A DNA stretch of 64,000 nucleotides, taken from contig JAGNUG010000004.1 in assembly GCA_017987115.1 (NCBI GenBank), positions 1,445-65,444 on the forward strand. Direction: 5' to 3'. Both the position numbers and the translations under genes were made by a program. How positions within the stretch are numbered: position 1 is the first letter of the stretch; each line of letters opens with the position of its first letter. The notes beneath the pieces were generated by a model. It did not search any database, was not told the DNA's origin, and worked only from the letters and a program-made list of their open reading frames with translations. This document shows positions 20,898-64,000 of the stretch, piece after piece. The stretch is from Flavobacteriales bacterium. GTDB taxonomy: Bacteria; Bacteroidota; Bacteroidia; Flavobacteriales_F; PHOS-HE28.

Positions 20898-20898
20898 T

Positions 20899-20914
20899 TG
20901 GTACTGGGTACTGA
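20899..20914. repeat. Left arm of an inverted heptamer-periodic repeat (TGGTACTGGGTACTGA)
   Basis: Reverse complement matches 21469-21484 at 15/16 positions; begins 1 nt after the ald stop. Confidence 0.7.
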
Positions 20915-20942
20915 GTATGGATATCTTTTTGTGAGCATATAA

Positions 20943-21386
20943 ATGAGAATCACTATTACAGCTATAATAATGCTAACAGGTTCACTACTTGCATCAGCTC
21001 AGAAGTGCAAGAAGTGTGATATGAATGCCCATGTTGACATTTCCGATAGAGTGCAGAAGAATACATACTCACAGATCCAAAGCTTTTTATGCACGTTCGA
21101 TGAACAGTGTAGATCCAATGTGGAATTTTCTGAATTCAGCAATGAACATCTATTCAAGGTTATTGAAGCGCACCCACAAGTATTTATTCAAGTACTGCAG
21201 AATGTTGATGATGTGAAACAACGACTAATTCTTGATGAACTGGAAGTACCGATCCATGATGGATTTGATCTGGAAGTGATCTATGCGAAACTATCGCAGA
21301 TCGAAGAGTCAAATGCTATGTTGGAAAAAGTAAAGGCGTCCATTGGGTCGGCAGTCAGAAAGTCAGGAGCAGAGATAAAAGAATAA
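20943..21386 (+). CDS. AT-rich secreted hypothetical protein (accessory cargo)
   Basis: Signal peptide (…LASAQ); 32-42% GC in three counted 60-bp lines; bracketed by the inverted repeat. Confidence 0.65.
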   Translation: MRITITAIIMLTGSLLASAQKCKKCDMNAHVDISDRVQKNTYSQIQSFLCTFDEQCRSNVEFSEFSNEHLFKVIEAHPQVFIQVLQNVDDVKQRLILDELEVPIHDGFDLEVIYAKLSQIEESNAMLEKVKASIGSAVRKSGAEIKE

Positions 21387-21468
21387 ATATGCTCTCGAAC
21401 GAAGGCTGGATCTACAACAAACCATCCCGCAACGTTTGAGCGATGCATTTGCTGGACGGGTAACCATT

Positions 21469-21484
21469 TCAGTACCCAATACCA
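21469..21484. repeat. Right arm of the inverted heptamer-periodic repeat (TCAGTACCCAATACCA)
   Basis: Inverse of 20899-20914; periodic units continue to about 21493. Confidence 0.7.
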
Positions 21485-21524
21485 GTTACCCAATGCCTTG
21501 TACTAAATACTCCTACAAAAACAA

Positions 21525-21917
21525 ATGTCTCTTCAACGTCGCTTAACGCTGTATCTCTTCGGGTTGGTCATCGGTGGAATGATGGCCTATAAGTATTACG
21601 GCGACCGTATTACCAATGGGAAATGGTTGCCGGAGAACAAAGTGAAACAACGCTTGGTAAGTACCCTGATCAAGGCATCACCGGAAGCCGAACAGCAACT
21701 GGCACAGTGGTCCACGGACCTTACAGCTGTGCGCCTTTCATTGGATAGTGCAACATTGGATCTTAGCGCAAGTAAACGCACACCTGATAGCATCTACTAT
21801 TCCATGCGAACAACAGTGGCTGGGCGCAATACAAGGCTTACGATAGCAGTACTCCGTGATTTCGATATTGACACAACTGCGACGCTGCAGCGGATCGTGT
21901 TGATCGCCCAGCCGTAG
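21525..21917 (+). CDS. Small membrane-anchored protein resembling the flavobacterial DUF4258-type neighbour of ald
   Basis: QRRLTLYLFGLVIG TM followed by WLPENKVKQRL; similarity and synteny recalled, not searched. Confidence 0.55.
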   Translation: MSLQRRLTLYLFGLVIGGMMAYKYYGDRITNGKWLPENKVKQRLVSTLIKASPEAEQQLAQWSTDLTAVRLSLDSATLDLSASKRTPDSIYYSMRTTVAGRNTRLTIAVLRDFDIDTTATLQRIVLIAQP

Positions 21918-21947
21918 GTAGTTGGTACGTTGTCGATAGTTCGCCTA

Positions 21948-22340
21948 TCAACGGGCCAATATCCCGCTATAATGCTGCTTTACCTCGTCGTTGCTTAACG
22001 TGATCAGCGTGAAAACACCGAGCGCGGTTCCAAAGGGGATACTTAAACAGCACAGTGCTGCAATGACCATGGATCCGGTGCGGTTCCGTGCTTTCGAGAT
22101 CCAATATCCGCTGAGCATTACAAATACACCGAATGCAAGAACAGCGAAAGCAACTCCCGACCCGATGCTCTGCATCAAGTGGCCAACGATCTCAGGTGGA
22201 GCATCCATTTCATGCTGCATCAGATCACTGTTCAGCATACCCCCGACTGCATACATTGCGAATCCTAGGAATATCGCCGTAAGACAAATAAGGCCACCAT
22301 ATACGTAGTGAAGGATCGAGACCGTAGAGAGATTGCGCAT
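21948..22340 (-). CDS. Small integral membrane hypothetical protein
   Basis: Three to four TM segments; LCCLSIPFGTALGVFTLITL motif. Confidence 0.7.
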   Translation of the reverse strand: MRNLSTVSILHYVYGGLICLTAIFLGFAMYAVGGMLNSDLMQHEMDAPPEIVGHLMQSIGSGVAFAVLAFGVFVMLSGYWISKARNRTGSMVIAALCCLSIPFGTALGVFTLITLSNDEVKQHYSGILAR

Positions 22341-22450
22341 TTGTGTTGGTTTTATGAAGCAAGAATACCAAACAGGTGAATACGTAAAGTGGCTTAACGG
22401 TTGAGTGGCTACCCGGGTTGATAATTGGTCTTGGAGACCTCGTGATCTTT

Positions 22451-23656
22451 TCAGTGCCGCGTCATTTCCCCTCTCCGTTTCCGTTCAGCAATGATCAATC
22501 CTAATTCGCGCCCAGTTTGTCCACGCGCGCTGGTATTCTCGGTTGCTCTGCGGATCAAATAGGGTAGGACCTTGCTTACCGGACCATATGGCATGTATTT
22601 TGCCACATTGTACCCCGCAGCGGCCATGTTGAAACTGATGTTATCCGACATGCCCAAGAGTTGAGAGAACCAGATGCGCGGATCGTTCCGTGCAATTTCC
22701 TGCTGCTGCATGAGCCGCGCTAGGTACAAGGTGCTCTTTTCGTTATGCGTTCCAGCTACCAAGGCCATTTTCTCCAAATGCTCCATGCAGAATTCCAACG
22801 CAGCATCATAATCACGATCGCACGCTTCCTTGTCCGGTTGAACGGGATCGAGGTAGCCCTTTTCCGCTGCACGTTCACGTTCTTTTTCCATGTACGCACC
22901 GCGCACCAACTTCACACCGAGGTGATAACCCCCTTGTTGCGCGCGCAGAAAACTGTCTTTCAAGAACGCGAGTCGATCATGGCGATACAATTGGATCGTG
23001 TTGAAGATGATCGTGCGTTGCTTGTTGTACAAAGCCATCTGGCTTTCAGCGAGATCATCGATCGCCTGTTGGATCCAGCTTTCCTCCGCATCTACAAGTA
23101 CCGGTGTACTGGCATCGTATGCCGCTTTGCAGATCCGCGCAAATCGGGCTTCGACACGTTTCCATTCCTCAGTCTCTATCAGGGTGAGTTGGTCCTTGGA
23201 ATTGATCTTTTCCAGCAGTTGTGTGCGCGCCAACCCGGTTACTTTGAACACCGCGAACGGGATCTTATTCTGTCCGTTCGCGGCACGGATCCCAACCAAT
23301 AATTCCTCTGTGGTCGCATCGAGTGAGGCCTCATCATCTTGCCCCTCTACGCTGTAATCCAAGATGGTCCCAACACCGCTTTCAGCTAGTTTTTCCGCCG
23401 TGATCAAGCTTTCACTCACTGTTTCACCTCCACAGAACTGTTCGAAGATCGTGGCCTTGATCACGCCTTTTATTGGTAAATGCATCGCCAAGGCTAGCTT
23501 GGTCAAGCTGGACCCCGCTGCGGTAAGCCACGGCGTACCGATGATGCGGAACAACCAGAATGCTTTGAAAAGGTCACGTTTGCTTTTATGGGCGAAGGCG
23601 GTGCGGGTATCTCCAAGATCAGGTAATTGATCAATGGATGCTATGGTTTCCGGCAT
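22451..23656 (-). CDS. Monofunctional proline dehydrogenase
   Basis: QFCGGE, VDAEES, KLVRGAYMEKE, AGTHN, SQLLGMSD, KYMPYGP, YLIRRA-EN. Confidence 0.93.
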   Translation of the reverse strand: MPETIASIDQLPDLGDTRTAFAHKSKRDLFKAFWLFRIIGTPWLTAAGSSLTKLALAMHLPIKGVIKATIFEQFCGGETVSESLITAEKLAESGVGTILDYSVEGQDDEASLDATTEELLVGIRAANGQNKIPFAVFKVTGLARTQLLEKINSKDQLTLIETEEWKRVEARFARICKAAYDASTPVLVDAEESWIQQAIDDLAESQMALYNKQRTIIFNTIQLYRHDRLAFLKDSFLRAQQGGYHLGVKLVRGAYMEKERERAAEKGYLDPVQPDKEACDRDYDAALEFCMEHLEKMALVAGTHNEKSTLYLARLMQQQEIARNDPRIWFSQLLGMSDNISFNMAAAGYNVAKYMPYGPVSKVLPYLIRRATENTSARGQTGRELGLIIAERKRRGEMTRH

Positions 23657-23740
23657 CTGATAGGTTGCGGTAACGTGATCCTTCGTTTATTTGAGCATCG
23701 GCGAGGGTCATTGGACCGACCTCTTCCGTATTTTGGGTTG

Positions 23741-23748
23741 CAAAAGTA
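23741..23748 (-). promoter_or_regulatory. Bacteroidota -7 element (TACTTTTG) for proline dehydrogenase
   Basis: Exact TAnnTTTG match in the divergent intergenic region. Confidence 0.5.
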
Positions 23749-23751
23749 GCA

Positions 23752-24855
23752 ATGGGCAGGATCAAGAAAACGGTCATTGAGATCGATGCTGGTGGACATC
23801 CTGTGTTCGCAGGTCATCATGCACTGTATTTCCTGGAAAAAATGCTCAAGAAGTTTGCGCCAAAGCAATGCTTCGTGCTTGGCGATGAGAACACGATCAG
23901 CCAATGCCTTCCCGAAGTTCAAGCCCATGTTCCATCTCTTCAGAAAGCGGAACTGATCTCGATCAATAGCGGAGAAGCCTCCAAGTGCTTGCCTGTTTGC
24001 CAGGATATTTGGGAACACCTTGCCGAATTGAAAGCTGACCGGAGCGCGGTGCTCATAAATCTCGGTGGTGGGGTGGTGTCCGATCTTGGTGGGTTCATTG
24101 CTTCAACCTACAAACGAGGGATACGTTCGATCAATTTGCCGACTTCGCTCATGGGCATGGTCGATGCTGCCATCGGAGGTAAGACCGGTATCGATCTGCA
24201 CGGGGCAAAGAACATGGTGGGGACGTTCCATGATCCGCTGGCAGTTTATATCTACCCCCCATTCTTGCGGACATTGAATAAACGCGAATTGTTGAACGGT
24301 CTTGCGGAAATGTTGAAGCATGGACTGATCGAGGACGCGAAGCATTGGAAAGCGATAACGAAAGCACCCTTGCATGATCTTGATGCCTTGGCGCCATTGA
24401 TCTATCGCTCGGTATCGATCAAGGCCGAAGTGGTGAAGCGCGATCCGCTTGAGGCTGGTTTTAGGAAGGTCCTCAATTTCGGCCATACCATCGGGCACGG
24501 TATCGAAGCCTATTCCTGGGAAAGTCAGCACCGTGCCCTTTTGCATGGTGAAGCCATTGCGATCGGCATGATCACGGAGTCATGGATCAGTAGCAGGATC
24601 GGTGGTCTGGATCGCGAGGATCATGATCGTATCGCCTCATTCTTGATCGAATTGTATAAGCCGTTTCTGATCGATGGTGCTGCGGATCACCGTGTTGTTG
24701 AATTGATGCGGAATGACAAAAAGAACAAAGAAGGTGAATTCCGTTTTACACTGATCGATCGCATTGGTAGCGCTGTTCCTGATATTCCTGTGACCGCAAA
24801 AATGGCCCGCGAAGCGTTGGAGCATTATCGCTTACTCGTACGTGACCGCCAATGA
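23752..24855 (+). CDS. aroB: 3-dehydroquinate synthase
   Basis: GEASK, GGGVVSDLGGF, MVDAAIGGKTG, LNFGHTIGH, HGEAIA, DKKN. Confidence 0.96.
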   Translation: MGRIKKTVIEIDAGGHPVFAGHHALYFLEKMLKKFAPKQCFVLGDENTISQCLPEVQAHVPSLQKAELISINSGEASKCLPVCQDIWEHLAELKADRSAVLINLGGGVVSDLGGFIASTYKRGIRSINLPTSLMGMVDAAIGGKTGIDLHGAKNMVGTFHDPLAVYIYPPFLRTLNKRELLNGLAEMLKHGLIEDAKHWKAITKAPLHDLDALAPLIYRSVSIKAEVVKRDPLEAGFRKVLNFGHTIGHGIEAYSWESQHRALLHGEAIAIGMITESWISSRIGGLDREDHDRIASFLIELYKPFLIDGAADHRVVELMRNDKKNKEGEFRFTLIDRIGSAVPDIPVTAKMAREALEHYRLLVRDRQ

Positions 24856-24897
24856 TCGACCTTTGTTGACCTGACCAGTTGGTCACTGTCGAATAAC

Positions 24898-26112
24898 ATG
24901 CAACCTTCAATTACCATCAAGCGACCATCCGGACCGCTGAACACAACGATCAACTTGCCGCGCTCCAAAAGCGTGAGTAATCGCGCGTTGATCATGGCTT
25001 CGTTGATCGGCGATCTGGATCTCGTTCACAATTTAAGCGATGGTGACGACACCCGCGTATTGCACCAATTGTTGCGCGATAGACCGCATACAATGGATTG
25101 TGGCGCTGGTGGCACCACGTTGCGGTTCCTACTGGCTTGGGCCAGCGTGCAGGAGGGTGAAGAACACCTTATCACGGGAATACCGCGATTGTTGGAACGG
25201 CCGCATGGTGATCTTGTAAATGCATTGATCACACTAGGTGCTGATATTCAAAAACTGCCCAATGGATTTTTAGTGAAAGGCAGAAAAATGAAGGGCGGGA
25301 AAGTGCATTTCGATTCGCCGATCAGCAGCCAGTACCTTAGTGCGTTGGTGTTGATCGCACCCAAGATGGAGGATGGTCTGGACATGCGTTGGACAGGAAC
25401 ACGATTGAGCGAACCATTCGTAAGTATGACGCTGAAGATGCTTGCTCACTTCGGGGTTTTCCCGCGGTTGGAAATGGATGGTGTTCGCGTTTTTCCCGGT
25501 GCATATAAAAAGGTGACCTACAATGTACCTCCCGATTGGAGCAGTGCAGCTTTTTGGTTCGAACAGGTTGCTATGGATCGCGGCGCTGATGTGTTACTCA
25601 CAGGGCTGGATGATGAAACGCTTCAGGGCGATCGTGAAGCCATGCGTTTGTGGTCACCGTGGGTGAATGCGGATTTCGAAAAGGATGGGTTGCGCTTGAC
25701 GCACCGCGAAATGCCCGATGAATGGCCGGACCATGCAATGCAAATGAAACATGTTCCGGATCTTTTCCAACCCCTTGCATTTACGCTCGCCGCGCGCGGA
25801 TGCAAGGCCACACTGACCGGTTTGGACAACCTCGTTGTAAAAGAAACCGATCGTCTTAAAGAAGTGGCCGCAGTGCTCCATACGTTGGGTTGCAGTGCCG
25901 TGCATTCCGACGGCACCTTCTCGCTCAGTGGATCGATAACGAATAAGGATCCGCTACCCTTCGATCCCAATATCGATCACCGCATGGCATTGTCCATTGC
26001 GCCGCTGGCACTTGTATTGCCGCAAGTGACCATTCACGATCCCGAAGTGGTGAACAAGTCATACCCTACGTTCTGGGATGACCTTCGCCAAGCAGGATAT
26101 ATTATTTCCTGA
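24898..26112 (+). CDS. aroA: EPSP synthase
   Basis: SKSVSNR, GTTLRF, SSQY, KETDRL, DHRMA, KSYP. Confidence 0.94.
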   Translation: MQPSITIKRPSGPLNTTINLPRSKSVSNRALIMASLIGDLDLVHNLSDGDDTRVLHQLLRDRPHTMDCGAGGTTLRFLLAWASVQEGEEHLITGIPRLLERPHGDLVNALITLGADIQKLPNGFLVKGRKMKGGKVHFDSPISSQYLSALVLIAPKMEDGLDMRWTGTRLSEPFVSMTLKMLAHFGVFPRLEMDGVRVFPGAYKKVTYNVPPDWSSAAFWFEQVAMDRGADVLLTGLDDETLQGDREAMRLWSPWVNADFEKDGLRLTHREMPDEWPDHAMQMKHVPDLFQPLAFTLAARGCKATLTGLDNLVVKETDRLKEVAAVLHTLGCSAVHSDGTFSLSGSITNKDPLPFDPNIDHRMALSIAPLALVLPQVTIHDPEVVNKSYPTFWDDLRQAGYIIS

Positions 26113-26748
26113 TCACCGATAGTCAGGAATATTCTTTCCCAAGGTGATCAACAGATCGCCTCGCCATTTGCCTGAACTGTCCTTTTCCAACGGAATGTTC
26201 AGGTCTCCGCCACGTTGTTCGGCGTTGTTCCTTTCTTCTTCGGTGAGTTTGGGGTCGTCGAGGAAACGGACCTCATCGATATAGTATTCGTTCTTGTCCG
26301 GTTCCTTCACGAAAATGTGGATGTGCGCCGGTAATGTTCCGTCAGGGTAGGGTGCTGGGCGGATGGTCTTCAATGTGAATTGGCCATTGGGACCTGTCCT
26401 GAGCCATCCTCGCAAATGACCGTGTCGTGCGCCATGGGATTGACCTTGTCCCGGGCTGTATTGCCCGTTCGCATCCGTGTGGTAGACGTATAGGATCACG
26501 TTCTCAGCAGGAGTTCTCCCATCAACTTGGACCAATATACCATCGATCACCAGTTTTTCACCAGGTTCGTTGGCCGATGATAGATCAAGCACAGATCCGA
26601 GCGTTTCTGGCGCTGGTTGCCCTTCATATAAGAGTTCGCACCCATCACATGGCCCGCCGATCTTTTGCGCCGAAGTGTTGGTCGCATTCTGCGCGACCGG
26701 TCCAGCACAACCGGTAAGTATCAAGACAAACGCGGCGCTAGTTCTCAT
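26113..26748 (-). CDS. Intradiol ring-cleavage dioxygenase-like lipoprotein
   Basis: Lipobox LTGC; YHTD-x-x-G-x-Y, LRGW, RPAPYP, PAHIH iron-ligand motifs. Confidence 0.82.
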   Translation of the reverse strand: MRTSAAFVLILTGCAGPVAQNATNTSAQKIGGPCDGCELLYEGQPAPETLGSVLDLSSANEPGEKLVIDGILVQVDGRTPAENVILYVYHTDANGQYSPGQGQSHGARHGHLRGWLRTGPNGQFTLKTIRPAPYPDGTLPAHIHIFVKEPDKNEYYIDEVRFLDDPKLTEEERNNAEQRGGDLNIPLEKDSSGKWRGDLLITLGKNIPDYR

Positions 26749-26938
26749 TCGATTACTTTCAACACTGAATGCGAGTTCACATGAAAAGTAACAAAAGGGC
26801 TATAATATCGAAGTGACGAAAAAATAATGAAATGGAAATTTAGGCGATCATCCTCATCTTCGCACGGATGAATCTGTAGCGCAACACTTCGCGCATGTGC
26901 AGTTGTATAAATTGGTACCTGATCTATTCCGAGATAAA

Positions 26939-32156: not shown

Positions 32157-33347
32157 CTAGCGCTCAATGATCCGGAACTCCACCCTGCGGTTCACGGCCT
32201 TGTTCGCATCACTGGTATTCGGCACTAACGGCTTGGATTCTCCGTAGCCTTTCCAAGTGATACGTTCTTTGTCCACTTTCTTTTTTATCAGGTAGTCCGC
32301 AACAGCTTTCGCGCGATCATTGCTCAACTTCAAGTTGTATTCGTCCGTGCCTTCATCATCCGTATGTCCTTCGATCTCTGCGGTGAGGAATGGATAGTCC
32401 GTTAGCATGTCCACCAACTTGGTCAGCTCGACCTCATAACCAGGTAGAAGTATGGCCTTATCGAATTCGAATTGCACATTGTCCAAACGCACGGTTGTGC
32501 CAACTGCTGGTTCCACCGTTTCAATAGCGACTTCCTTGGTGCTGGTATGTTGGGGTACGACGATCTTTGGTGGAGGTGGAATACTCTGCTTGGGTTTTGG
32601 CGTTAGATCAGCACCTTCAGGCGCAATACGCACGTTCACATCGTCGATGTAATAGTATGCACCACGTTCGCCTTTGTCGAATTTCTCTATGGTCGTTGCT
32701 TCGTCCCCATAGAAATTTCCGAGCAGCAGGAACTTCTCCTCACCGGTTGCATCGAACACGCCACTCACCTTATGCCATCCGCCTTTTACGGTCTTTTCCT
32801 CGTTAACGGTCGGTGTCAGGTACAGCGGCAAGCAATCGCGTGTGCTTATTGGAGTATCCGTGAAAAGCAGGCCGATGTTATTACTGGCTTCATTGCTTCG
32901 CTCAGCGCGCAACGCCCAGAACTCAGCAATGTAGCGGGTGCCGGCGATCAAGGGTTCGGGTAACTCGGCCTGAACATATTCATGCCAGAACGTAGGCGTG
33001 TTGCCGAGGCCATAAGTCTTGATCCCGATCATGGCATCTCCTGTGTGTGTCGATTGTTTACCGTTACTATGCTTGCTCGGATGCGCCCAACAGGTGTTCT
33101 CGTTCTTGGTGCTGAAATGGTCCGGAGTGGTCTGCGTCGGACTGCTCCAACCGATCATGTTCGTGTTGAACTTGGCTACGTCCTGGGTCCAACCGCAATA
33201 CACACGTTGCGATTCCTCAAAGCCAGGATTGATCACCAGATTCGGCATGGTGTCGTTCTGCAAAGCGCGTTGCAGAAGATTCTGTGCATCGGCGGCCAGA
33301 ACGAATAGGATCGAGATCGCGGTAAAAAGAAGATGCTTGCGGTTCAT
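32157..33347 (-). CDS. OmpA-C peptidoglycan-binding protein with N-terminal carbohydrate-binding-like domain
   Basis: Signal peptide; NLVINPGFE; C-terminal VQFEFDKA, IEGHTD, LSNDRAKAV, GYGESKP, NRRVEF. Confidence 0.88.
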   Translation of the reverse strand: MNRKHLLFTAISILFVLAADAQNLLQRALQNDTMPNLVINPGFEESQRVYCGWTQDVAKFNTNMIGWSSPTQTTPDHFSTKNENTCWAHPSKHSNGKQSTHTGDAMIGIKTYGLGNTPTFWHEYVQAELPEPLIAGTRYIAEFWALRAERSNEASNNIGLLFTDTPISTRDCLPLYLTPTVNEEKTVKGGWHKVSGVFDATGEEKFLLLGNFYGDEATTIEKFDKGERGAYYYIDDVNVRIAPEGADLTPKPKQSIPPPPKIVVPQHTSTKEVAIETVEPAVGTTVRLDNVQFEFDKAILLPGYEVELTKLVDMLTDYPFLTAEIEGHTDDEGTDEYNLKLSNDRAKAVADYLIKKKVDKERITWKGYGESKPLVPNTSDANKAVNRRVEFRIIER

Positions 33348-33420: not shown

Positions 33421-33500
33421 AGCAGTGGGCAACCAGCAGTGGGCAATTGGCGACCAGCTGTTTGCAGTTGCCAACTGCCCACTGGAAACTACGAACTGCA
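33421..33500. repeat. Inverted heptamer-periodic array with no cargo (REP-like)
   Basis: GCAGTGG GCAACCA GCAGTGG GCAATTG GCGACCA GCTGTTT GCAGTTG, then CCAACTG CCCACTG GAAACTA CGAACTG; 33437-33453 pairs with 33468-33484 at 15/17. Confidence 0.75.
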
Positions 33501-33534: not shown

Positions 33535-34929
33535 ATGACAGTTACTCGCCTATTCAACCTCATCCGCGAAAGCTTCGATGGTAACGAGGAGCGTGATTAC
33601 ACGCAGATCGGTGTTAGGCATGCGATCGTCCTGCTATGCATTCCGATGGTCCTCGAAATGGGAATGGAAGCCGTGTTCGCATTGGTGGATATTTTTTTCG
33701 TGAGCAAACTCGGCAAAGAAGCAATAGCTACCGTTGGTCTTACGGAAGGTGTGATGATGTTGGTCTATTCCCTTGCATGGGGACTAGGGATGGGAATTAC
33801 AGCATTGGTCGCAAGAAGAGTAGGTGAAAAGGATCCCAAGGGGGCATCGCGTGCAGCTATGCAAGGGATGTTGCTGACCGTGCTCCTGGGAATACTGATC
33901 GCTATCCCCGGCTTGATCATGCCTGAAAGGATACTAAGCCTCATGGGTGCCGAACCAGAGGTTGTGGAGATGGGCACTTCCTATATGCGGATCATGCTCG
34001 GTGGCAACATTGTGATCCTGTTGATCTTTGCAGTGAATGCGATCTTTCGCGGAGCTGGCGATGCGGCCATGGCCATGCGATCACTTGCATTGGCCAACGG
34101 TCTCAACATCATTTTATGCCCTCTGTTGATCTATGGTGTTGGACCGATCGAAGGGCTCGGCGTTACAGGAGCAGCACTTGCTACGACCATTGGTAGAGGT
34201 AGTGGGGTGGTCTATCAACTGTACCATTTGTTCAGTGGCAAGGGGCGTATCACCGTTCGCGGCATTGCCCTCGCGTTGGATCCAAGCGTTATGCTGAATA
34301 TCCTGAAGATCTCGGCTGGGGGTGTCGCGCAATTCTTGATCGCATCAGCCAGTTGGGTGTTCATGGTCCGCATCATTGCTGCATTCGGAAGTGCAGCTAT
34401 TGCAGGCTATACCATTGCGGTGCGGATCATTATTTTTTCCATTCTTCCGTCTTGGGGAATGGCCAACGCGGCGAGTACACTTGTAGGTCAGAATCTTGGC
34501 GCGCAACAACCGGAACGTGCTGAACGCTCCGCATGGTTATGCGGCCATTACAACATGATCTTCATGACCTGCATCGCGGTCTTTTTCTGGATCACTGCGC
34601 CGTGGCTGATCAGCTTTTTTACTACGGAACAGGAGATCATAAGCGTAGGTATCGATGCATTGCGCATCATTTGCCTAGGTTACTTTTTCTATGGATATGG
34701 AATGGTATTGGCCCAAGCCTTCAATGGAGCCGGTGATACGCTCACACCTACTTGGATGAATGTGGTCTGTTTCTGGATGTTGGAGATCCCACTCGGTTGG
34801 TTCCTTGCCAGAACATTGGGATGGGGACCGCACGGCGTGTTCGCGTCGATCGCGATCAGTGAAAGTGCGCTTGCAGTGTTAAGCGTTGTACTCTTCAAAC
34901 GCGGCAAGTGGAAATTGATGCAGGTGTGA
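33535..34929 (+). CDS. MATE family efflux transporter
   Basis: About 12 TMs; DIFFVSKLG, FRGAGD, GQNLGA, AFNGAGDT. Confidence 0.93.
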   Translation: MTVTRLFNLIRESFDGNEERDYTQIGVRHAIVLLCIPMVLEMGMEAVFALVDIFFVSKLGKEAIATVGLTEGVMMLVYSLAWGLGMGITALVARRVGEKDPKGASRAAMQGMLLTVLLGILIAIPGLIMPERILSLMGAEPEVVEMGTSYMRIMLGGNIVILLIFAVNAIFRGAGDAAMAMRSLALANGLNIILCPLLIYGVGPIEGLGVTGAALATTIGRGSGVVYQLYHLFSGKGRITVRGIALALDPSVMLNILKISAGGVAQFLIASASWVFMVRIIAAFGSAAIAGYTIAVRIIIFSILPSWGMANAASTLVGQNLGAQQPERAERSAWLCGHYNMIFMTCIAVFFWITAPWLISFFTTEQEIISVGIDALRIICLGYFFYGYGMVLAQAFNGAGDTLTPTWMNVVCFWMLEIPLGWFLARTLGWGPHGVFASIAISESALAVLSVVLFKRGKWKLMQV

Positions 34930-57162: not shown

Positions 57163-57378
57163 TCTGCGTTCGAGAATTTGCAGGTAATTCTATACGTGAC
57201 TTGGACCTGATCCGTTGATCCTCGGAATAGTTCAAGGTCCATGTTTATTTTCAAGATTGCATCATATTGATACTTCTGGTGGGTTTATCTGTTCGTGACC
57301 ACTTGATCGAGTCTTCTTTCCTAAGATTTGGATGCAACGATCATTTCAACCAACTTCGCTCACCTAACACGAACCATA

Positions 57379-57819
57379 ATGAAGTCCACCAAACACATTG
57401 TTATCCTCTCTTTTGCCATGTTCTCTATGGCGGCATGTTCCAGTGAACCCAAGAATGAAACACCTGAGCAGAAGGAGGAACGGGTCGTAGAGGAGGCAGT
57501 GAAATGCGATCCACTCGTGAACGAATTCAAGGAGCTTATGGTGGAGTACGAGATGACGCTTGGTGAAATGGTTACCGCTAAACAGGTTTATCCTGAAAAA
57601 CAAGCAGCTCTTGCGAAAAAAGCGAAGGACCTCAGCGATCGGATACAGGAGCGCGGAGAAAAGTCACTCGGTGTAAAGTGTTGGTCTGAATTTCAGACCA
57701 TTGGTAAGACATACGGCCCGCGTATCATGAAACTTGGTATGGAACTAGCCACGATGGAAGGTGGCATGGAGGGGGTGGACCCGGCAATGATAGAGCAGTT
57801 GCAGAAAGTGATGCAGTAG
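57379..57819 (+). CDS. Helical lipoprotein, hypothetical
   Basis: MKSTK-hydrophobic-MAAC lipobox followed by an acidic linker. Confidence 0.7.
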   Translation: MKSTKHIVILSFAMFSMAACSSEPKNETPEQKEERVVEEAVKCDPLVNEFKELMVEYEMTLGEMVTAKQVYPEKQAALAKKAKDLSDRIQERGEKSLGVKCWSEFQTIGKTYGPRIMKLGMELATMEGGMEGVDPAMIEQLQKVMQ

Positions 57820-57835
57820 CTGCGGTGAGTTCAAT

Positions 57836-58837
57836 ATGAGCAAGCAGACACATCGTTCCAAACTGCTGCCGGGGATCACGTTCGTGGTGTGTCTTGCACT
57901 CTTAGGAGTTTTTGTCGGTGGCGTCATTGGACGATCTGCGGTACCGAAGTCGCATGGGCTTGCTGGCGCTGCCGAAGTGCTCGGTTATGTGTTAGTGCTA
58001 TCCATCGCTTTCATTGTGATCGGTATTTTACTGGTGAAGAAATTTTCACGACGACGGATCGTTCGATCGTTACTTTTTGTAGGTCCGTTAGCGTTGATGT
58101 TGGTGGCCTATGGAACGTGGCGATTCATGCAGATGAAGGCCGGACAGGACGAACAATGGCAAAATGAGCAAGAGCGGTATAAGCAATTGAAACCAACGGC
58201 CCCCGCAGTGTCGGTCATGTTCGCATCACAACACGCACCAATTGATGTATCTCGTTCTAATGTGGCGCAGACCGGACCAGTGCTTGGTCTTGGGATAGGG
58301 TCACCGATCCTGGAACGCGGCGTCTTCCACTTCTATAATGAACCGGATATGGACCAGCTCCCGGCAACATTCCTGGCACTGGATAGCCTCACCTTCGCAA
58401 AGGGCGAGCATTTCACTAACATCACCTCGGCCCCACCATGGTTCCTACCGGCGCATATGAAGTTGGACTATGACTTGCTTCTGCTGAAGGTAATTACGCT
58501 CGCACGCAATTGGGTGGAAGTGGAAGTGAACATGTTGGATGGCACTACGCGCTGGGTAGATAGACAGGAATTGGAAATTGTTCTATGGCCGGAATTCATC
58601 AGTACCGTGGGCAGTGTGGAGATCTTGGATCCGGTATCAAATCCGATCCGCATCAAGCCTCTTGATCATGCATCTGTTCTTGCTGATGGCGCTGGTGCCT
58701 TATTGAATCCGCTCGCGGTGCAAGGAGATTGGCTGATGGTGGGAACTTCAGAATTGGCTGACCGCATTGCACCGACCGGATGGATCCGCTGGCGTGATGG
58801 CGAACGACTATTGGTTCGTTACAATTTGTTGTGCTGA
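57836..58837 (+). CDS. Three-TM membrane protein with C-terminal tandem SH3b-like segments
   Basis: Three N-terminal TMs; NWVEV...TRWVD and GDWLMV...GWIRW. Confidence 0.6.
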   Translation: MSKQTHRSKLLPGITFVVCLALLGVFVGGVIGRSAVPKSHGLAGAAEVLGYVLVLSIAFIVIGILLVKKFSRRRIVRSLLFVGPLALMLVAYGTWRFMQMKAGQDEQWQNEQERYKQLKPTAPAVSVMFASQHAPIDVSRSNVAQTGPVLGLGIGSPILERGVFHFYNEPDMDQLPATFLALDSLTFAKGEHFTNITSAPPWFLPAHMKLDYDLLLLKVITLARNWVEVEVNMLDGTTRWVDRQELEIVLWPEFISTVGSVEILDPVSNPIRIKPLDHASVLADGAGALLNPLAVQGDWLMVGTSELADRIAPTGWIRWRDGERLLVRYNLLC

Positions 58838-58870
58838 GCCTATGTATGTGATCTGCGGAACGGTGTCCAA

Positions 58871-60013
58871 TTACCGATACTTGAACCACGCAGCAAAGAA
58901 CGGATTGTAAGGTGCATAGACCGGCTTACCGGATCCTTCAGTGTAGGTCGTTATATAGATCAACTCACGATCGATCAAGGCTTGGATTGCATGGGTCAGC
59001 GCTGCGGAAGAGGGGAGGTCGTACTTCTTAATGAAAGCACCACCCGTGGGTGTATCCACTTCGCCTTCCCTGGATACCGCAGCGAACAGGTCCCATTGAT
59101 TCTTGGTCAACGCACTGCGTAAGGTGGCCATGATCGCATCTTGTTCACGGACCGTTGACAGGATCACGTGTACAATGGTATCACGATCCAGCGGACGTGG
59201 ATCACCGAACAACCGGTTGAACAACACTTGCAAGTAGTAGGTATGCCCGCGACAGATGTCGTAACAGAAATAGGTATCTTCCAGTGTGATCTTGCGCTTG
59301 TGTCGTTTCAATAAGGCTTGCGCGAATTTCGCATACGTGGTGCGGTCAATTCGGGCTAATTCCACTTGGTCCGCGCTAGCGTAGAACGGGTTCTTTGCGT
59401 TGTTGAACAGGTCCAACAACATGTGGCGTTGGCTACCGGAGAATATGCAGCGCACTTTGGGACTGTTCTGTAGCTCGGTTCGCAGTAGTGCATCCATCCG
59501 GACATCCTTGAATGTCGCGATCTGTTGGAATTCATCAATGGCCAGGAAGATCGTTCGGTCCTGTTCATTCAAGAACCGGAAGATCTCGCGGGTAGTGGCT
59601 GCCTCCTGCTTTTGGCTACCACGATCCAGTGATATGCTGGGTTTGCCGGTCAATTCATCTACACTTATCACCGGACGGATGGACGAGAACCACGTCATTA
59701 CATTCTTAATGAACTGTTTCGGCGTTGGGTTCAACGACTGGTTCACAGCATTCAGCAGGATCGTGTTGAGATCATGCACGTCCTGTGCAGCATAGATATC
59801 CGCGAACACGGTACGCGCACCACGGACTTTGCTCAGTTCATTGAAGATATGTTGGATCAACCCGGTTTTGCCGTAACGCCGCGGGCTGTACAGCATCACA
59901 TGTCGCCCGTTGCGTAAGGCAGAGGATATGCTGGCTGTTTCATCCTCTCGGTCGCAAAAGAGCTGGGGCGAGCGGTATGCCGTTACCACGAAGGGATTAT
60001 CGTCTTCCATCAT
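58871..60013 (-). CDS. AAA+ ATPase (archaeal-ATPase/ATPase_2 family) with probable C-terminal winged helix
   Basis: NPF...FCDR, SPRRYGKT Walker A, IDEFQ Walker B, FSGS, GHTYY; C-terminal helix-turn-helix-like segment. Confidence 0.85.
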   Translation of the reverse strand: MMEDDNPFVVTAYRSPQLFCDREDETASISSALRNGRHVMLYSPRRYGKTGLIQHIFNELSKVRGARTVFADIYAAQDVHDLNTILLNAVNQSLNPTPKQFIKNVMTWFSSIRPVISVDELTGKPSISLDRGSQKQEAATTREIFRFLNEQDRTIFLAIDEFQQIATFKDVRMDALLRTELQNSPKVRCIFSGSQRHMLLDLFNNAKNPFYASADQVELARIDRTTYAKFAQALLKRHKRKITLEDTYFCYDICRGHTYYLQVLFNRLFGDPRPLDRDTIVHVILSTVREQDAIMATLRSALTKNQWDLFAAVSREGEVDTPTGGAFIKKYDLPSSAALTHAIQALIDRELIYITTYTEGSGKPVYAPYNPFFAAWFKYR

Positions 60014-60015
60014 AA

Positions 60016-60070
60016 CAAAGGTAAACGAATATTACTAAAGAAAGTTTACTAAATTGTTTTTAGTAATATT
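60016..60070 (-). promoter_or_regulatory. -7 box (TACCTTTG) plus AT-rich inverted repeat, putative operator of the AAA+ ATPase gene
   Basis: AATATTACTAAA (60028-60039) and TTTAGTAATATT (60059-60070) are perfect inverses; a third TTACTAAA lies at 60046-60053. Confidence 0.7.
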
Positions 60071-60208
60071 TATTGAAAAGGAAGTATTCGGAGACCCTTT
60101 GTCCTTATGGTGAATGCGCTCACGGACCAATTTCGTGTCACCACGAATAAGGTACCCCACAATAACGCCGGAGCAGATATGATCCACCCCGGCGCTCATT
60201 CACCTTAA

Positions 60209-60248
60209 GTCACTCCGGGCTGGACCCGGAGTCTCAAATTTTGAGACT
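60209..60248. repeat. REP-like double hairpin downstream of acyl-CoA dehydrogenase
   Basis: ACTCCGGG-CTGGA-CCCGGAGT overlapping AGTCTCAAA-T-TTTGAGACT. Confidence 0.65.
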
Positions 60249-60253
60249 ATGAC

Positions 60254-62077
60254 CTAATAACAATACTTCCCTTCCGCAATAACCTTCTTCGCGACCAATT
60301 TCCGCAGCTCGGCTGTGTTCAGGTTCGTGCTTTTGCAGAAGCGCTTCGCACCCATCAGCATCGCGCGTTGCTCGTCGCCATCGGCGAAATTGTTCACGGC
60401 CTCCTTCGCGTACTTGTGGATCCGATCTGCAGCGTCGTGGATGTACAACTGCGTCATCGCCACCTGCTCAGTCATTCCGGCCACCGAGCCGGAATCTCCC
60501 TTCATGCTCGCCAATTTCAGCGTCCGCAATAACACGCTCTCCGCGAGGTAGGTGTCGATGACCATGTCCGCGATATGCATCAAGGTCTCCTGGTGTTTCG
60601 CGAGTTCCAGACCGAGCTTCTGCGCAGCGCCACCGGCCACCATCAACACCGCCTTCTTGAAGTTCGCGACCATGCGCTTCTCGTCACCGAACAGTGAATC
60701 ATCGGGTTCCGGCATGTCGGGAATGCCCATCAGCTCAGCGGCTACGGCCTGCGCCGGACCCATCAGATCCAGTTGCCCTTTCATCGCACGCTTCAGCAAC
60801 ATGTCCACCGTGAGCATGCGGTTGATCTCGTTCGTTCCCTCGAAGATCCGGTTGATCCGGCTGTCGCGGTAGGCGCGCTCCACAGGGCTTTCAGCACTGT
60901 AGCCCATGCCACCATAGATCTGCACCCCTTCGTCGCATACGTAATCCAAACACTCACTGCCGGCTACTTTCAGAATGGCGGCTTCCACAGCGTATTGCTC
61001 CACGCCTTTCAACAATGCTTTCGCGTGATCCGCGCCACCCGCCTCGAGTTCTTCGATCGCATGCTCCATATCTTGGCTACAGCGATACGTCGCACTTTCC
61101 ACCACGTAGCAATATGTGGCTTGGTCGGCTAGTTTCTGGCGGATTGCACCGAACGAACTGATCGGACGACCGAACTGGATACGCTCGTTTGCGTACTTCA
61201 CGCTCTGATCAACAACTGCTTTTGCGCCACCCAAGGCCGCACCCGCCAATTTGATACGACCGATGTTCAGAATATTCACCGCGATCTTGAAACCATTACC
61301 GCGCTCACTCAATAAATTCTCGACAGGCACTTTGCAATCGTTGAAGAACACCTGTCGCGTGCTGCTGCCTTTGATCCCCATCTTCTTCTCCTCTGGGTTC
61401 AGCGTGATCCCGCCGAAACTTTTCTCAACAATGAAGGCGCTCAAGTTCTCATCAGCTTCGCCGGTCTTCGGATCGATGATCTTCGCGAACACCGTGAAAA
61501 TATCCGCGAAACCACCATTGGTGATCCACATTTTCTGGCCATTCAGAATGTAGTGCTTGCCATCAGGCGTGAGTTCCGCTTTCGTCTTTCCGCTGTTCGC
61601 ATCGCTACCGCTGCTGGGTTCGGTTAAGCAATAACATGCTTTCCATTCACCGCTTGCAAGTTTCGGAACATACTTCTTTTTCTGCTCCTCGTTGCCATAG
61701 TACAGGATAGGCAATGTGCCAATGCCCGTATGCGCCGCCATCGCCACGCTGTAACTATGACCTGCACCGGTTCGCTCCGTCACCAACATCGTGGTCACGA
61801 AGTCCTTACCGAAACCGCCAAGGTCCTCTGGTACGCTGATCCCTAGCAAGCCGAGTTCACCCGCTTTTACAAGCAGGCTTTCCATCAATCCTTCTTTCTG
61901 GTCGTCAATATCCTCGACCACTGGCCATACGTTCTGCGCGAGAAAATCCACGCAGGTCTGGCCGATCATTTGCTGTTCCTCGTTGAATTCTTCGGGAATG
62001 AAAATGTCCTGCGGGTCGCTCTCGCGGATCAGGAACTCGCCTCCTTGGAGGGCTTTGTTTTTCGTTTCTGTTGCCAT
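60254..62077 (-). CDS. Acyl-CoA dehydrogenase (long-chain, FadE-like)
   Basis: YCLTEPSSGSDA, NGQKMWITNG, KMGIKGSST, LNIGR, QIYGGMGY, RIFEGTNEI. Confidence 0.96.
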   Translation of the reverse strand: MATETKNKALQGGEFLIRESDPQDIFIPEEFNEEQQMIGQTCVDFLAQNVWPVVEDIDDQKEGLMESLLVKAGELGLLGISVPEDLGGFGKDFVTTMLVTERTGAGHSYSVAMAAHTGIGTLPILYYGNEEQKKKYVPKLASGEWKACYCLTEPSSGSDANSGKTKAELTPDGKHYILNGQKMWITNGGFADIFTVFAKIIDPKTGEADENLSAFIVEKSFGGITLNPEEKKMGIKGSSTRQVFFNDCKVPVENLLSERGNGFKIAVNILNIGRIKLAGAALGGAKAVVDQSVKYANERIQFGRPISSFGAIRQKLADQATYCYVVESATYRCSQDMEHAIEELEAGGADHAKALLKGVEQYAVEAAILKVAGSECLDYVCDEGVQIYGGMGYSAESPVERAYRDSRINRIFEGTNEINRMLTVDMLLKRAMKGQLDLMGPAQAVAAELMGIPDMPEPDDSLFGDEKRMVANFKKAVLMVAGGAAQKLGLELAKHQETLMHIADMVIDTYLAESVLLRTLKLASMKGDSGSVAGMTEQVAMTQLYIHDAADRIHKYAKEAVNNFADGDEQRAMLMGAKRFCKSTNLNTAELRKLVAKKVIAEGKYCY

Positions 62078-62081
62078 TGTG

Positions 62082-62113
62082 TCGATCAAATGGTCAGTGG
62101 GTCAAACGGTCAG
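62082..62113. repeat. Octamer tandem array (TCGATCAA ATGGTCAG TGGGTCAA ACGGTCAG), one arm of the insert bracket
   Basis: Four 8-bp units; inverse-related to 63483-63506. Confidence 0.65.
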
Positions 62114-62135
62114 CCCTTCGATTAACTCAGGGTGA
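62114..62135. repeat. REP-like element CCCTTCGATTAACTCAGGGTGA
   Basis: Resembles the common CCCTTCGA-n4-CTCAGGGTGA intergenic repeat (recalled, not searched). Confidence 0.45.
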
Positions 62136-62327
62136 AATGATCGAATGCCTGCTGGGTGTGGTTAACGGTTCGTGATACGGACTAGTTCGGTCTAAAGTTA
62201 TGCACGCATACCTTATTTTCCAAATGTTGGATATACCCGGATGGGACGGCTTTCTGGTTGTGGGTCTTGGTCCGTGTTTGCGGATACAAAACGGATAATT
62301 GCGGATATGCACTAGCGCCATTATACT

Positions 62328-62490
62328 GAGTTGGATACAAATTGTAACCAACTCAACTGGTAACGATCTGTTACCAGTTGGTCTTGCCCGTGATCCAACC
62401 GGTTACGATCTGTCACCAACTGAATTACCACTCGTAAACCTAGCCCATTTCAACTGGTGACGGTTTGTCACCAGTTGCAATGGGCTAGGT
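62328..62490. repeat. Cluster of four related 27-bp (12-3-12) palindromes; the last is extended to a 53-bp foldback
   Basis: Units at 62328-62354, 62354-62380, 62396-62422 and 62451-62477; 62438-62490 has 24-bp arms with one mismatch. Confidence 0.85.
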
Positions 62491-62786
62491 ACGGATTGTA
62501 CGAGTCGCAACAAGGTCTCGGCGGTGGCCACGTCGGTGAGGTACTTCTTGCCGTCGGCGGCTTCCAATTTCAGTCGGTTACAATTTGTAACCGACTGGCT
62601 GCCTTCCTTGGCCAGCCTGCCTTTCAGCACTTTCCAGTACTTCCGAGCGGCTTGGTAGTCGGACGACTGGGTCAACGCTCGGATGATGTCGATAACCGAG
62701 AACCACCACGTCTCCGTGGCATCATCATAGAGCCGACGAATCTGATGTTGCTCGAACAGCGTAGCAGAGGGTAGCAGGGCGCTCAT
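62403..62786 (-). pseudogene. BRO-N domain (phage antirepressor-like) gene, truncated after about 102 codons
   Basis: IRRLYD-x-x-TETWWFSVIDII...ARKYW-x-x-LK-x-RL-x-KEGSQSVTNC-x-RLKL-x-AADGK-x-YLTDVA-x-x-ETLLRLVQSVPSP; recognisable family sequence stops at PSP (about 62481) and the rest of the ORF is palindrome-derived. Confidence 0.8.
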
Positions 62787-62795
62787 GCTTTGTAA

Positions 62796-62814
62796 GCCGA
62801 AGCTTTAGCGTAGG
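62796..62814 (-). repeat. REP-like element CCTACGCTAAAGCTTCGGC
   Basis: Matches a widespread intergenic repeat motif as I recall it; lies just upstream of the BRO-N ATG. Confidence 0.5.
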
Positions 62815-62913
62815 ATTGGTTTCAGTGGGTGACGGCTTCTTCGTCAACAAGCATTGAACAACATACGGACAGGCTGCCGGGCTTGAGTGTATTGGAGGTC
62901 ATGGTTCTCATCA

Positions 62914-63315
62914 CTACTTCTCTCCAAGTCCTTCGATGAACTTCTTTGGATCGAGCACGAAGCGTTTGGCCTCTGACTGGTCGAGCGTTGCCTTCACATT
63001 CGCCATTGTCGGCTCCAGTAGCTCTACATGGATGAGCTTCAACTGAAGGTCGAATCTTCGAGCGAGTGCAAGCACCTTTTCAATAAAGGACTCATCGACA
63101 TTGCGCAGGTCAATCCGGAACCTGATCTCCTCGATCACTCTGGTATCATTCACCCACGCGATCCAGAGATCGTTCGTGTCAGTCTTGCCCCATGTTTGGT
63201 GATCCTCTCCGCCCCAGTCTCGTGGCAACGTGCCGTCGATATGAGGCAGTACATCATCAATGGTCAGCGTTGATTTGCCGATCTCGAGAAAGAAGCTCTT
63301 CTGCCAGACGGCCAT
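62914..63315 (-). CDS. Hypothetical cytoplasmic protein (MAxWQ-type accessory cargo)
   Basis: 133-aa ORF with a normal globular composition inside the thiolase/acyl-CoA dehydrogenase insert. Confidence 0.65.
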   Translation of the reverse strand: MAVWQKSFFLEIGKSTLTIDDVLPHIDGTLPRDWGGEDHQTWGKTDTNDLWIAWVNDTRVIEEIRFRIDLRNVDESFIEKVLALARRFDLQLKLIHVELLEPTMANVKATLDQSEAKRFVLDPKKFIEGLGEK

Positions 63316-63370
63316 GATACTGCTTGTTATCGGGTAGAGATCATCAGCCTCGAACGTGATCCCGCATTTC

Positions 63371-63465
63371 GCGTGAGCGATTGCAGCGCAAAGCCCACAG
63401 CGCGGTAATCCGCTCGAGGACTTGAAGCGGAAAGCGCGACGGCGAGTCTTCGAGCCGACACGCCC
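63371..63465 (-). repeat. About 95-nt multi-stem intergenic element (GGGCGTG...CACGC)
   Basis: Closing GCGTG/CACGC stem, with internal CGGC/GCCG, TCCGCT/AGCGGA and GCGC/GCGC stems; resembles a repeated Bacteroidota intergenic element. Confidence 0.55.
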
Positions 63466-63482
63466 AAAACCACATTCCCATT

Positions 63483-63506
63483 ATCTGATCGTCTGATCAT
63501 CTGATC
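63483..63506. repeat. Octamer tandem array ATCTGATC GTCTGATC ATCTGATC, other arm of the insert bracket
   Basis: Three 8-bp units abutting the thiolase stop codon. Confidence 0.7.
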
Positions 63507-64000
63507 CTAGTTCAACAACTCAAACACACTCGCCGCACCCTGTCCCGTCCCCACGCACATCGTCACAACCCCGTACTTCTGTTTCCGGCGCCGCATCTCG
63601 TTGAACAACTGCACGCTCAGCTTCGCGCCGGTGCAGCCCAGCGGATGCCCCATGGCGATCGCGCCGCCGTTCACGTTCACGATGTCCGGGTCCAGGCCCA
63701 GCTCGCGGATCACCGCCAGGCTTTGGCTTGCGAAGGCCTCGTTCAACTCGAACTGCTCGATGTCCTTCAGCTTCAGACCGGCCTTTTCAATGGCCTTAGG
63801 CACCGCCGCCACCGGACCGATGCCCATGATGCGCGGCTCCACGCCGGCCACGTGGTAGGAGAGGAGGCGCGCGATCGGTTTCACTCCGAGTTCCTTGAGC
63901 ATGCGCTCGCTCACCACCAGCACGAAGGCCGCGCCATCGCTGGTCTGGCTCGCGTTGCCCGCTGTCACCGTCCCCTTCGCATCGAACACCGGACGCAGTT
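63507..64000 (-). CDS. fadA: Acetyl-CoA C-acyltransferase (thiolase), 3' part only; start lies beyond the window
   Basis: [29 protein letters not shown] catalytic motifs. Confidence 0.95.

Follow-up and report, generated by a model that had tools for sequence, protein, structure and literature searches.

Phased-repeat hairpins resembling 23S rRNA intervening sequences, and their possible colonisation of gene junctions in a Flavobacteriales genome

We analysed 64,000 nt of DNA (hereafter the window; 51% GC) from a Flavobacteriales bacterium (GTDB PHOS-HE28; GCA_017987115.1, contig JAGNUG010000004.1, forward strand, positions 1,445-65,444), in which a sequence-only reading had described inverted arrays of 7-8-bp repeats at three sites: an empty one between an OmpA-family gene and a MATE transporter gene (site a), one enclosing a single gene downstream of ald (site b), and a multi-gene one between thiolase and acyl-CoA dehydrogenase (ACAD) genes (site c). 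The arrays of sites a and b are genuine inverted pairs, as judged from their folds and, at site b, from an 18/20 match, whereas those of site c are unpaired (12/16, which equals background). The explanation to which we give about an even chance is that phased-repeat hairpins, similar to the intervening sequences (IVS) of 23S rRNA genes, colonise gene junctions and that their loops can receive further cassettes. Sites a and b would be members of a genome-wide class of inserted elements, each made of two inverted arms of 3-7 degenerate 7- or 8-nt units and each having its own unit family; this would be the same class that brackets PF05635 ('23S rRNA IVS protein') genes, and it resembles the 23S rRNA IVS that carry an open reading frame (ORF). 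Such elements would settle in gene junctions, often filling the intercistronic spacer from stop to start codon. Site a would be a gene-less member, and the loop of site b would have received a second, independently mobile unit, namely a foreign ORF cassette (39% GC) bounded by its own hairpin. The genome that contains the window (G000, 3.73 Mb in 202 contigs, the window being C14:1445-65444) was searched with our own, crude gene calls, and was compared with relatives represented by one genome per species, the closest having ~87% ald identity. The closest genome in this set is that of a sister species, G019; G042 was considered as a closer relative because of its 98% thiolase identity, and was set aside because its neighbouring gene at the ald locus is only 45% identical.

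Site b, in which an inverted pair had been proposed to enclose an AT-rich gene, consists of the following features.

20895-20897, plus strand: ald stop codon
20898-20920, plus strand: left arm, TT GGTACTG GGTACTG AGTATGG, starting 1 nt past the ald stop
20931-20942, plus strand: left half of an inner inverted repeat, GTGAGCATATAA, abutting the cargo start codon
20943-21386, plus strand: cargo gene, a 147-aa orphan with 39% GC and an N-terminal signal peptide
21387-21396, plus strand: right half of the inner inverted repeat, ATATGCTCTC, directly past the cargo stop
21470-21511, plus strand: right arm, CAGTACC CAATACC AGTTACC CAATGCC TTGTACT AAATACT

The right arm, separated from the cargo stop by an 83-nt spacer, decays to an A-rich leader and leaves 13 nt to the ATG (21525) of the next gene, which encodes 130 aa. 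The two arms share a 20-nt inverted match with 18/20 identities (90%), versus 11/20 in direct orientation, for which a hand calculation over the 45 x 138-nt search space gives p ~1e-5, and when joined they fold at -31.6 kcal/mol (z = -6.7); the proposed inverted pair around an AT-rich gene is therefore upheld. Units of the same GGTACNG family were found at two other loci of the genome, both of them gene-less hairpins that fill whole intercistronic spacers.

C93:5824-5896: empty GGTACNG hairpin, starting 3 nt past a stop codon, with four G-rich units, a 14-nt loop and seven C-rich units
C175:38925-39050, minus strand: empty GGTACNG hairpin of the same design, its last unit abutting an ATG

In the C93 hairpin the C-rich units decay to A-rich sequence, which ends 3 nt before the ATG. 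The design of site b is that of the C93 hairpin with the loop replaced by ~0.55 kb, and empty and filled members of one architecture do exist, as had been anticipated.

The cargo of site b is a foreign orphan, its 39% GC contrasting with the 51% of the window. It has no Pfam or NCBIfam match and only three homologue clusters in 5.8 billion proteins, and its AlphaFold 2 model is all-helical (six short helices, pLDDT 67), with no PDB fold match at E < 2; for want of a family or PDB match, and given the six short helices, a diverged four-helix bundle was considered and rejected. Metagenome contigs of the same species (L025 and L026) carry arms and cargo identical to those of the window. An 80%-identical variant of the cargo (L027-L029) occurs in three metagenomic contexts that differ in their flanks, and it brings an inverted repeat of its own, 14-22 nt long and placed close against the start and stop codons (GTTGGCGAGCATAT-AA-ATG ... 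TAA-ATACGCTCGCCAAC); the window cargo retains a shorter form of this repeat (20931-20942 / 21387-21396), of which no further copies were found in its own genome. No GGTACNG arrays accompany the variant in the 60-130 nt of visible flank. Since the variant cargo lacks GGTACNG arms, and GGTACNG hairpins exist without a gene, arms and cargo each occur without the other. The cargo may have entered a pre-existing loop.

At site a the array stands alone.

33421-33500, either strand: gene-less phased-heptamer hairpin of the GGCAGTN/GCAATTG family, recognised from sequence and fold

Seven heptamers on the G-rich side (GCAGTGG GCAACCA GCAGTGG GCAATTG GCGACCA GCTGTTT GCAGTTG) are directly followed by four on the C-rich side (CCAACTG CCCACTG GAAACTA CGAACTG), and the core stem (33437-33451 / 33470-33484) is complementary at 14/15 positions. 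The hairpin has a minimum free energy of -40.1 kcal/mol, with z = -4.9 on either strand, and 0/200 shuffles folded as well. This site, which had been read as empty, is a genuine gene-less hairpin of the class. It occupies the divergent promoter region between the OmpA-family gene (32157-33347, minus strand) and the MATE transporter gene, which actually begins with the ATG at 33535, and its GGCAGTN units also form the arms of a PF05635 gene at C192:9060-9452. No array was found at the OmpA/MATE junction of 11 relatives that keep this neighbourhood, and G020 has there a hairpin of a different unit (GGCGAGT). The hairpins of sites a and b are both absent from the sister species.

To place these two sites within the genome, arrays were scanned by autocorrelation at lags 4-12 (threshold 12/14 matches). 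Intergenic arrays outnumbered genic ones at lag 7 (29 versus 10) and lag 8 (24 versus 16), and each of the lags 4-6 and 9-12 gave 0-6 intergenic arrays. Against dinucleotide-preserving shuffles of 1,779 strict intergenic spacers, the observed numbers were 21 versus 1.05 at lag 7, 7 versus 0.05 at lag 8, 3 versus 0.05 at lag 9 and none at lag 10. These data showed that period-7 and period-8 arrays are real, at least 20-fold more frequent than in shuffled intergenic DNA, and that no other period is comparable. The cyanobacterial heptamers known as short tandemly repeated repetitive (STRR) sequences are intergenic heptanucleotide repeats; the hallmark of such long simple sequence repeats (LSSR), an enrichment of tandem 7-nt units in intergenic DNA, is seen here as well. 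The unit families of this genome are GGCAGTN, CAAGACA / CAAGATT, GATYAGCT, GATCAGAN (about 20 intergenic loci), GAATGTA / GAATATC and GGTACNG. Arms are true inverted copies that agree even in the variable positions of their units, the best match being at the inner ends.

That the arrays are plain simple sequence repeats made by slippage, whose inverted likeness arose by chance, was already disfavoured and we regard it as very improbable. Heptanucleotide repeats are the commonest long class in many bacteria (Mrazek 2007, as cited in PMC4679880), and unit number varies among strains of Coxiella (PMC4990558), both of which speak for slippage; against it stand the p ~1e-5 of the inverted pair at site b, the variable positions shared between arms, the association of particular families with PF05635 genes, the strand rule described below and the lack of whole hairpins in sister species.

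Inverted symmetry is nonetheless not a general way of bracketing genes. A genome-wide search for inverted spacer matches around 1-2 genes gave no general enrichment (9 inverted-only versus 25 direct-only pairs at >=17/20 matches), and the inverted brackets were nearly all mobile or cassette units: IS3, the gene of a transposase associated with repetitive extragenic palindromes (RAYT) together with those palindromes (REPs), a GxxExxY cassette, the C192 PF05635 cassette, a Flavo-1-like pair and site b. The GxxExxY cassette type is seen at C78:46071-46451, where a 127-aa gene of the PD-(D/E)XK-like GxxExxY type lies within 20/20 inverted arms of GCAGAT-containing units with a period of 9-10, a second type of cassette with phased arms.

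Where a gene does lie between the arms, it is mostly a four-helix-bundle gene, and not accessory DNA in general, as had been supposed. The genome has three clear PF05635 genes, all three bracketed by inverted arrays.

C192:9060-9452: PF05635 gene, arms of the GGCAGTN family of site a
C125:30471-31133: PF05635 gene, arms of GATTAGCT octamers
C146:29254-29679: PF05635 gene, arms of CAAGACA / CTTGTGT arrays

Each of these three arm families is also found without a gene at three or more other loci of the same genome. Inverted arms of period 7 or 8 accompany at least 17 of the 31 PF05635 loci in 14 other genomes of the genus. Four-helix-bundle proteins may be the cognate binders of the arrays. Three relatives also have a PF05635 gene ~1 kb upstream of the region that encodes the thiolase C-terminus (G009:C3:980584-980889, G003:C6:188837-189148 and G001:C11:120803-121063); four-helix-bundle cassettes are thus found at a further junction of this beta-oxidation operon.

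The junction between ald and the next gene, compared in 23 members of the genus including the window's own genome, showed a wide range of states. Four genomes have a bare spacer of 7-15 nt (for instance G017 and G019, both TGA-GCAC-ATG, the spacer of G019 being 7 nt). Gene-less arrays or remnants are present in at least four genomes, probably six or more, among them a clean GATCAGAN hairpin in G016, a left arm only of CATGTGNN units in G020 and a remnant in G008. Arms of CATGTGNN units surround an orthologous PF05635 gene in G011, G003, G043 and G044; G045 has GATCGGA/TCTGATC arms enclosing four REP-like palindromes, G015 a GTGATAG array and G002 a porin gene without arms, while our genome has its orphan gene within GGTACNG arms. 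The genus therefore uses at least five different arm units at this one junction. Junction states are interleaved on the ald tree, and sister taxa differ: the window's genome is sister to the bare G019 (support 98/96), G020 with its left arm is sister to the bare G013, and G016 with its empty GATCAGAN hairpin is sister to G044, which has CATGTG arms plus the gene. The junction is a turnover hot spot within the genus. A similar picture emerged at the C93 junction, with spacers of <=15 nt in 11/24 relatives and arrays of three further families in three others. Because the outer arm ends lie at the stop and start codons, arms at the ald junction coincide with indel boundaries (compare TGA-GCAC-ATG in G019), as the sequence-only reading had expected of all sites; on the ACAD side of site c this did not hold, the array there lying downstream of a conserved promoter block. 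We infer that the elements arrive by insertion. Seeding of arrays from the local spacer, suggested by the likeness of a CACATG unit to the bare GCACATG, may apply to the CATGTG family, and it does not fit the four others at ald; a 'CCCGCA' motif as a remnant of the ancestral spacer within the arms was dropped, being too weak a signal in GC-rich spacers.

The geometry of these junctions could also be read at the level of RNA, the arms pairing over a long range in the polycistronic transcript and looping out the cargo, so that RNase III cuts and the operon tolerates the insert. The joined arms of site b do fold strongly (-31.6 kcal/mol, z = -6.7), arms abut stop and start codons, and RNase III cleaves the Coxiella IVS at its first heptamer repeat (PMC4990558). 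However, the mismatches between arms, counted on the sense strand over 16 hairpins, comprise 6 G.U, 11 A.C and 22 transversions (a small sample), and with A.C exceeding G.U there is no sign that pairing is maintained at the RNA level. The mismatch types favour a symmetry at the level of DNA, or a recent symmetry, and count against an mRNA stem, which the sequence-only reading had offered as its second option. Moreover, the hairpins in divergent promoter regions (site a, C90 and C115) have no single transcript across both arms, and many arrays have no partner to pair with. We consider this explanation improbable.

Site c had been described as a pair of inverted octamer arms. Both arrays exist, each in its own position next to a gene.

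63483-63506, minus strand: thiolase-side post-stop array, GATCAGAT GATCAGAC GATCAGAT (sense), 0 nt past the TAG
62082-62113, minus strand: ACAD-side pre-start array, CTGACCGT TTGACCCA CTGACCAT TTGATCGA (sense), in the ACAD 5' leader
62182-62224, minus strand: ACAD promoter/operator block, TTGGAAA..TATGCGTGCATAACTTTA..CCGAAC (TTGGAAATTTGTTATGCGTGCATAACTTTA), upstream of ACAD in ~18/21 genus members
62403-63315, minus strand: variable cargo of the thiolase/ACAD gap, with a 133-aa ORF (62914-63315) and a truncated Bro-N-like ORF (62403-62786)
63327-63480, either strand: conserved GC-rich element beside the post-stop array, with a weak Flavo-1 likeness

The two arrays lie 1.37 kb apart between genes that are both on the minus strand; the ACAD-side array is followed by CACA, 4 nt, and then the ATG at 62077. 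The post-stop array is detected by Tandem Repeats Finder (TRF) and belongs to a family of about 20 loci. Over 2.5 kb it finds no inverted match better than 12/16, which equals both its best direct match and background, so that the two arrays are not an inverted pair. They are also distributed differently in the genus. The post-stop array follows the thiolase stop in G023, G007, G043 and G012, which lack the leader array; orthologous leader arrays, (TCTGATC)n...GATCGACAC-ATG, are present in G044, G009, G020 and G014, which lack the post-stop array. The gap holds different genes in almost every relative, with or without arrays, and measures 9 nt in G016. Its true limit on the ACAD side is marked by the block at 62182-62224, in which a palindromic operator-like TTATGCGTGCATAA is set inside promoter-like sequence. 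In G009 the 133-aa cargo gene (MAVWQKSF...) starts 7 nt past the thiolase stop with no arms. Thus both of the contrary observations that the sequence-only reading had itself named, cargo without arms and an array off the indel boundary, were made at this site: site c is not a member pair. Its two arrays, the one past the thiolase stop and an old one of a related unit family in the leader before the ACAD start, happen to flank a hypervariable gap. The ORFs of site c have no Pfam or NCBIfam match to PF05635, and the Bro-N-like match (E = 0.002) is below cut-off.

The window contains no Rfam family at gathering score, rRNA included. The GC-rich element at 63327-63480 scores 30.2 bits against RF01705 (gathering score 42; E = 5.6e-4), which is sub-threshold, and no match at gathering score was found in 12 related loci. 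An element of this GC-rich kind, ~110 nt long (GGGCGTGCC...GGCTTTCCGCTGCAAGTCC...), has copies at C69:12517-12586 and at C125:33557-33609 and 34542-34639 of the same genome; inverted copies flank the thiolase-ACAD gap in many relatives, and at C125 a TonB-like gene lies between the two copies, which are inverted. A cluster of REP-like hairpins of the CAACTGGTAAC-N5-GTTACCAGTTG type at 62329-62600, together with a 24-nt palindrome (96%) at 62438-62490, overlaps the Bro-N-like ORF and apparently truncates it; hairpins of this type also follow thiolase in G042.

In transcription direction the purine-rich arm had been said to come first, beside the stop codon, and this extends to the whole genome: 9/11 post-stop arrays (<=10 nt from the stop) are purine-rich and 11/14 pre-start arrays are pyrimidine-rich on the sense strand, the rule being obeyed by 20/25 arrays overall. 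In the divergent promoter regions of site a, C90 and C115 a C-rich arm points toward each start codon. Leaders in Bacteroidota are A-rich and G-poor, and the rule may have arisen because G-rich sequence immediately before start codons is selected against. This rule is also one of several points that speak for the arrays being cis-acting expression elements selected in place, either bound by protein or tuning the structure of the leader, so that the bracketing of genes would be incidental. Most arrays are single-armed, the array in the ACAD leader is orthologous in five species, one spacer of G022 combines a post-stop array of GATCAGAC units with an unrelated CTGACAA array before the next start, and arrays stand in every spacer of the allantoin operon on C188. 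There are published parallels in the TAACTGA repeats upstream of start codons (PMC4679880) and in the GGGNATC repeats, which follow the same strand rule (PMC4692102). On the other hand, sister species do with 4-15-nt spacers at the same junctions, unit families at one junction differ among species, paired arms agree in their variable positions, and arrays are tightly associated with PF05635 genes, and on balance we think this explanation rather unlikely. The purine/allantoin catabolism operon (C188:2461-5625) has an octamer array or hairpin in every intercistronic spacer, with GATTAGCT / AATTAGAT / AATTAGCT as units, several of them palindromic and their arrays hence self-complementary.

The colonisation of junctions by IVS-like hairpins has its own difficulties, and the following observations weigh against it. 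About 30 of the 54 arrays of the genome have no inverted partner, which makes the array, not the pair, the basic unit. The ACAD leader array, conserved in five species, looks functional rather than selfish in these comparisons. No empty GGTACTG hairpin was seen at the ald junction itself, so that a joint arrival of arms and cargo is conceivable. The CATGTGNN cassette at that junction diverges about as much as its host, and old vertical descent with losses fits it as well as repeated insertion does. Comparison of bare and filled junctions at ald and C93 revealed no target-site duplications; no recombinase or transposase was found adjoining any arm, and no near-identical dispersed copies; and members of one unit family share the unit only, neither the loop nor the order of units. 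The absence of target-site duplications and of an adjacent enzyme, together with the sharing of units only and the single-armed state of most arrays, argues against a simple transposition of the type of miniature inverted-repeat transposable elements (MITEs).

Among described systems, the nearest relative of these elements is the IVS of Coxiella burnetii, a 28-bp stem with GACAGAT repeats of strain-variable number around a PF05635 ORF; RNase III cleaves this IVS, for which no mobiliser is known (PMC4990558). Like the ORF-bearing IVS of Coxiella burnetii, Leptospira and Xanthomonas (PMC4990558), the elements described here have a long stem, formed by terminal inverted repeats, round a small ORF, tandem heptamers in that stem, a variable number of units and a proposed mobility with no known enzyme, and in this genome and genus the gene usually enclosed is PF05635. 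A stem of the IVS kind is present at site a (z = -4.9) and at site b (18/20, z = -6.7), and not at site c. They differ in location, the IVS residing in a helix of 23S rRNA (9, 25 or 45) and sites a-c all lying between protein-coding genes; in content, since the IVS encodes PF05635, which is missing from sites a, b and c, although three other loci of the same genome have it; and in completeness, many of our elements being gene-less or single-armed, unlike the ORF-bearing IVS.

Intergenic heptanucleotide repeats share with our arrays the degenerate period-7 units, the 2-6 or more units per set and the vicinity of stop and start codons. The GGGNATC heptamers of Xanthomonas and Nostoc have their G-rich strand sense after stops and antisense before starts (PMC4692102), and TAACTGA repeats lie upstream of start codons in Beggiatoaceae, Cyanobacteria and Bacteroidetes (PMC4679880). 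Both, however, are direct arrays with one unit per genome, in contrast to the several families, octamers, inverted pairing and enclosed genes seen here (PMC4692102, PMC4679880), and most of our units have no G-tract and hence no G-quadruplex. REP/RAYT systems (REPINs) likewise combine a protein gene within its own inverted repeats with dispersed gene-less copies and hairpins. A check for co-occurrence with RAYT genes, which had been suggested, did find two of them, identical to each other (C175:46375-50166), but they are flanked by their own non-periodic REPs (CTGCAGGGTC...GACCCTGCAG) and are unrelated to the heptamer arrays; furthermore, PF05635 is not a nuclease or transposase fold, unlike RAYT, a Y1 transposase, and members of a heptamer family have only the unit in common. 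Integron cassettes with their attC sites resemble site b as promoterless single-ORF cassettes with hairpin-forming ends at a recurrent site. Yet the R''/R' cores (RYYYAAC/GTTRRRY) are absent from the arms of site b, the inner repeat (GTTGGCG / CGCCAAC) does not fit them, the repeats here flank the ORF on both sides, and no integrase gene was found nearby or among the ORFs of the window. Foldback elements have terminal inverted repeats composed of tandem subrepeats. With these and with MITEs our elements share the short, non-autonomous, inverted-repeat form, and the hallmarks of MITEs, namely target-site duplication, near-identical copies and a cognate transposase, were not found.

A more far-reaching proposal is that the phased 7/8-nt hairpins are landing pads, a trans-acting activity inserting hairpin-bounded single-ORF cassettes into their apical loops at operon junctions. 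Among such cassettes would be those with four-helix-bundle genes, with genes for GxxExxY nucleases and with orphans like that of site b; four-helix-bundle pentamers might be unit-specific binders of the arrays, and rRNA IVS would be a special case, with an rRNA helix as the hairpin. We regard this as unlikely, and the trans-acting capture enzyme that it calls for, as did the sequence-only reading, is purely conjectural. Within the genus, the states of single junctions form a natural series, from a bare spacer through an empty hairpin to hairpins that hold either a four-helix-bundle gene or an unrelated foreign one. This series links two puzzles that are decades old, the intergenic heptanucleotide repeats and the origin of ORF-bearing rRNA IVS, and provides concrete substrates with which the binding and movement of arrays can be studied. 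If it is true that loops accept cassettes, operons would have a new way of acquiring genes in their interior.

A different form of accumulation was observed at C195:1262-3985 of the same genome, where the end of a carboxyltransferase gene, its last 10-53 codons, is repeated at least nine times downstream of the gene, the copies alternating with three small ORF cassettes and seven near-identical hairpins of ~105 nt made of GAATATC heptamers. Partial second copies of the thiolase 3' end were likewise found downstream of inserts in G018, G020, G019, G011 and G012 (L038, L039, L045, L047 and L051), and in G012 a GATCAGAN hairpin is followed by ~30 nt that repeat the last thiolase codons and the stop. 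These copies, at C195 and after thiolase, look like the expected trace of repeated single-crossover integration of circles carrying a cassette plus a gene 3' end, which may be one way in which hairpins and cassettes build up behind stop codons; sites a-c show no duplication of a gene 3' end. Finally, the spacer downstream of the acyl-CoA dehydrogenase gene contains an AT-rich palindrome of 21 nt (AATATTACTAAAGAAAGTTTA / TAAATTGTTTTTAGTAATATT) at 60028-60070 of the window.

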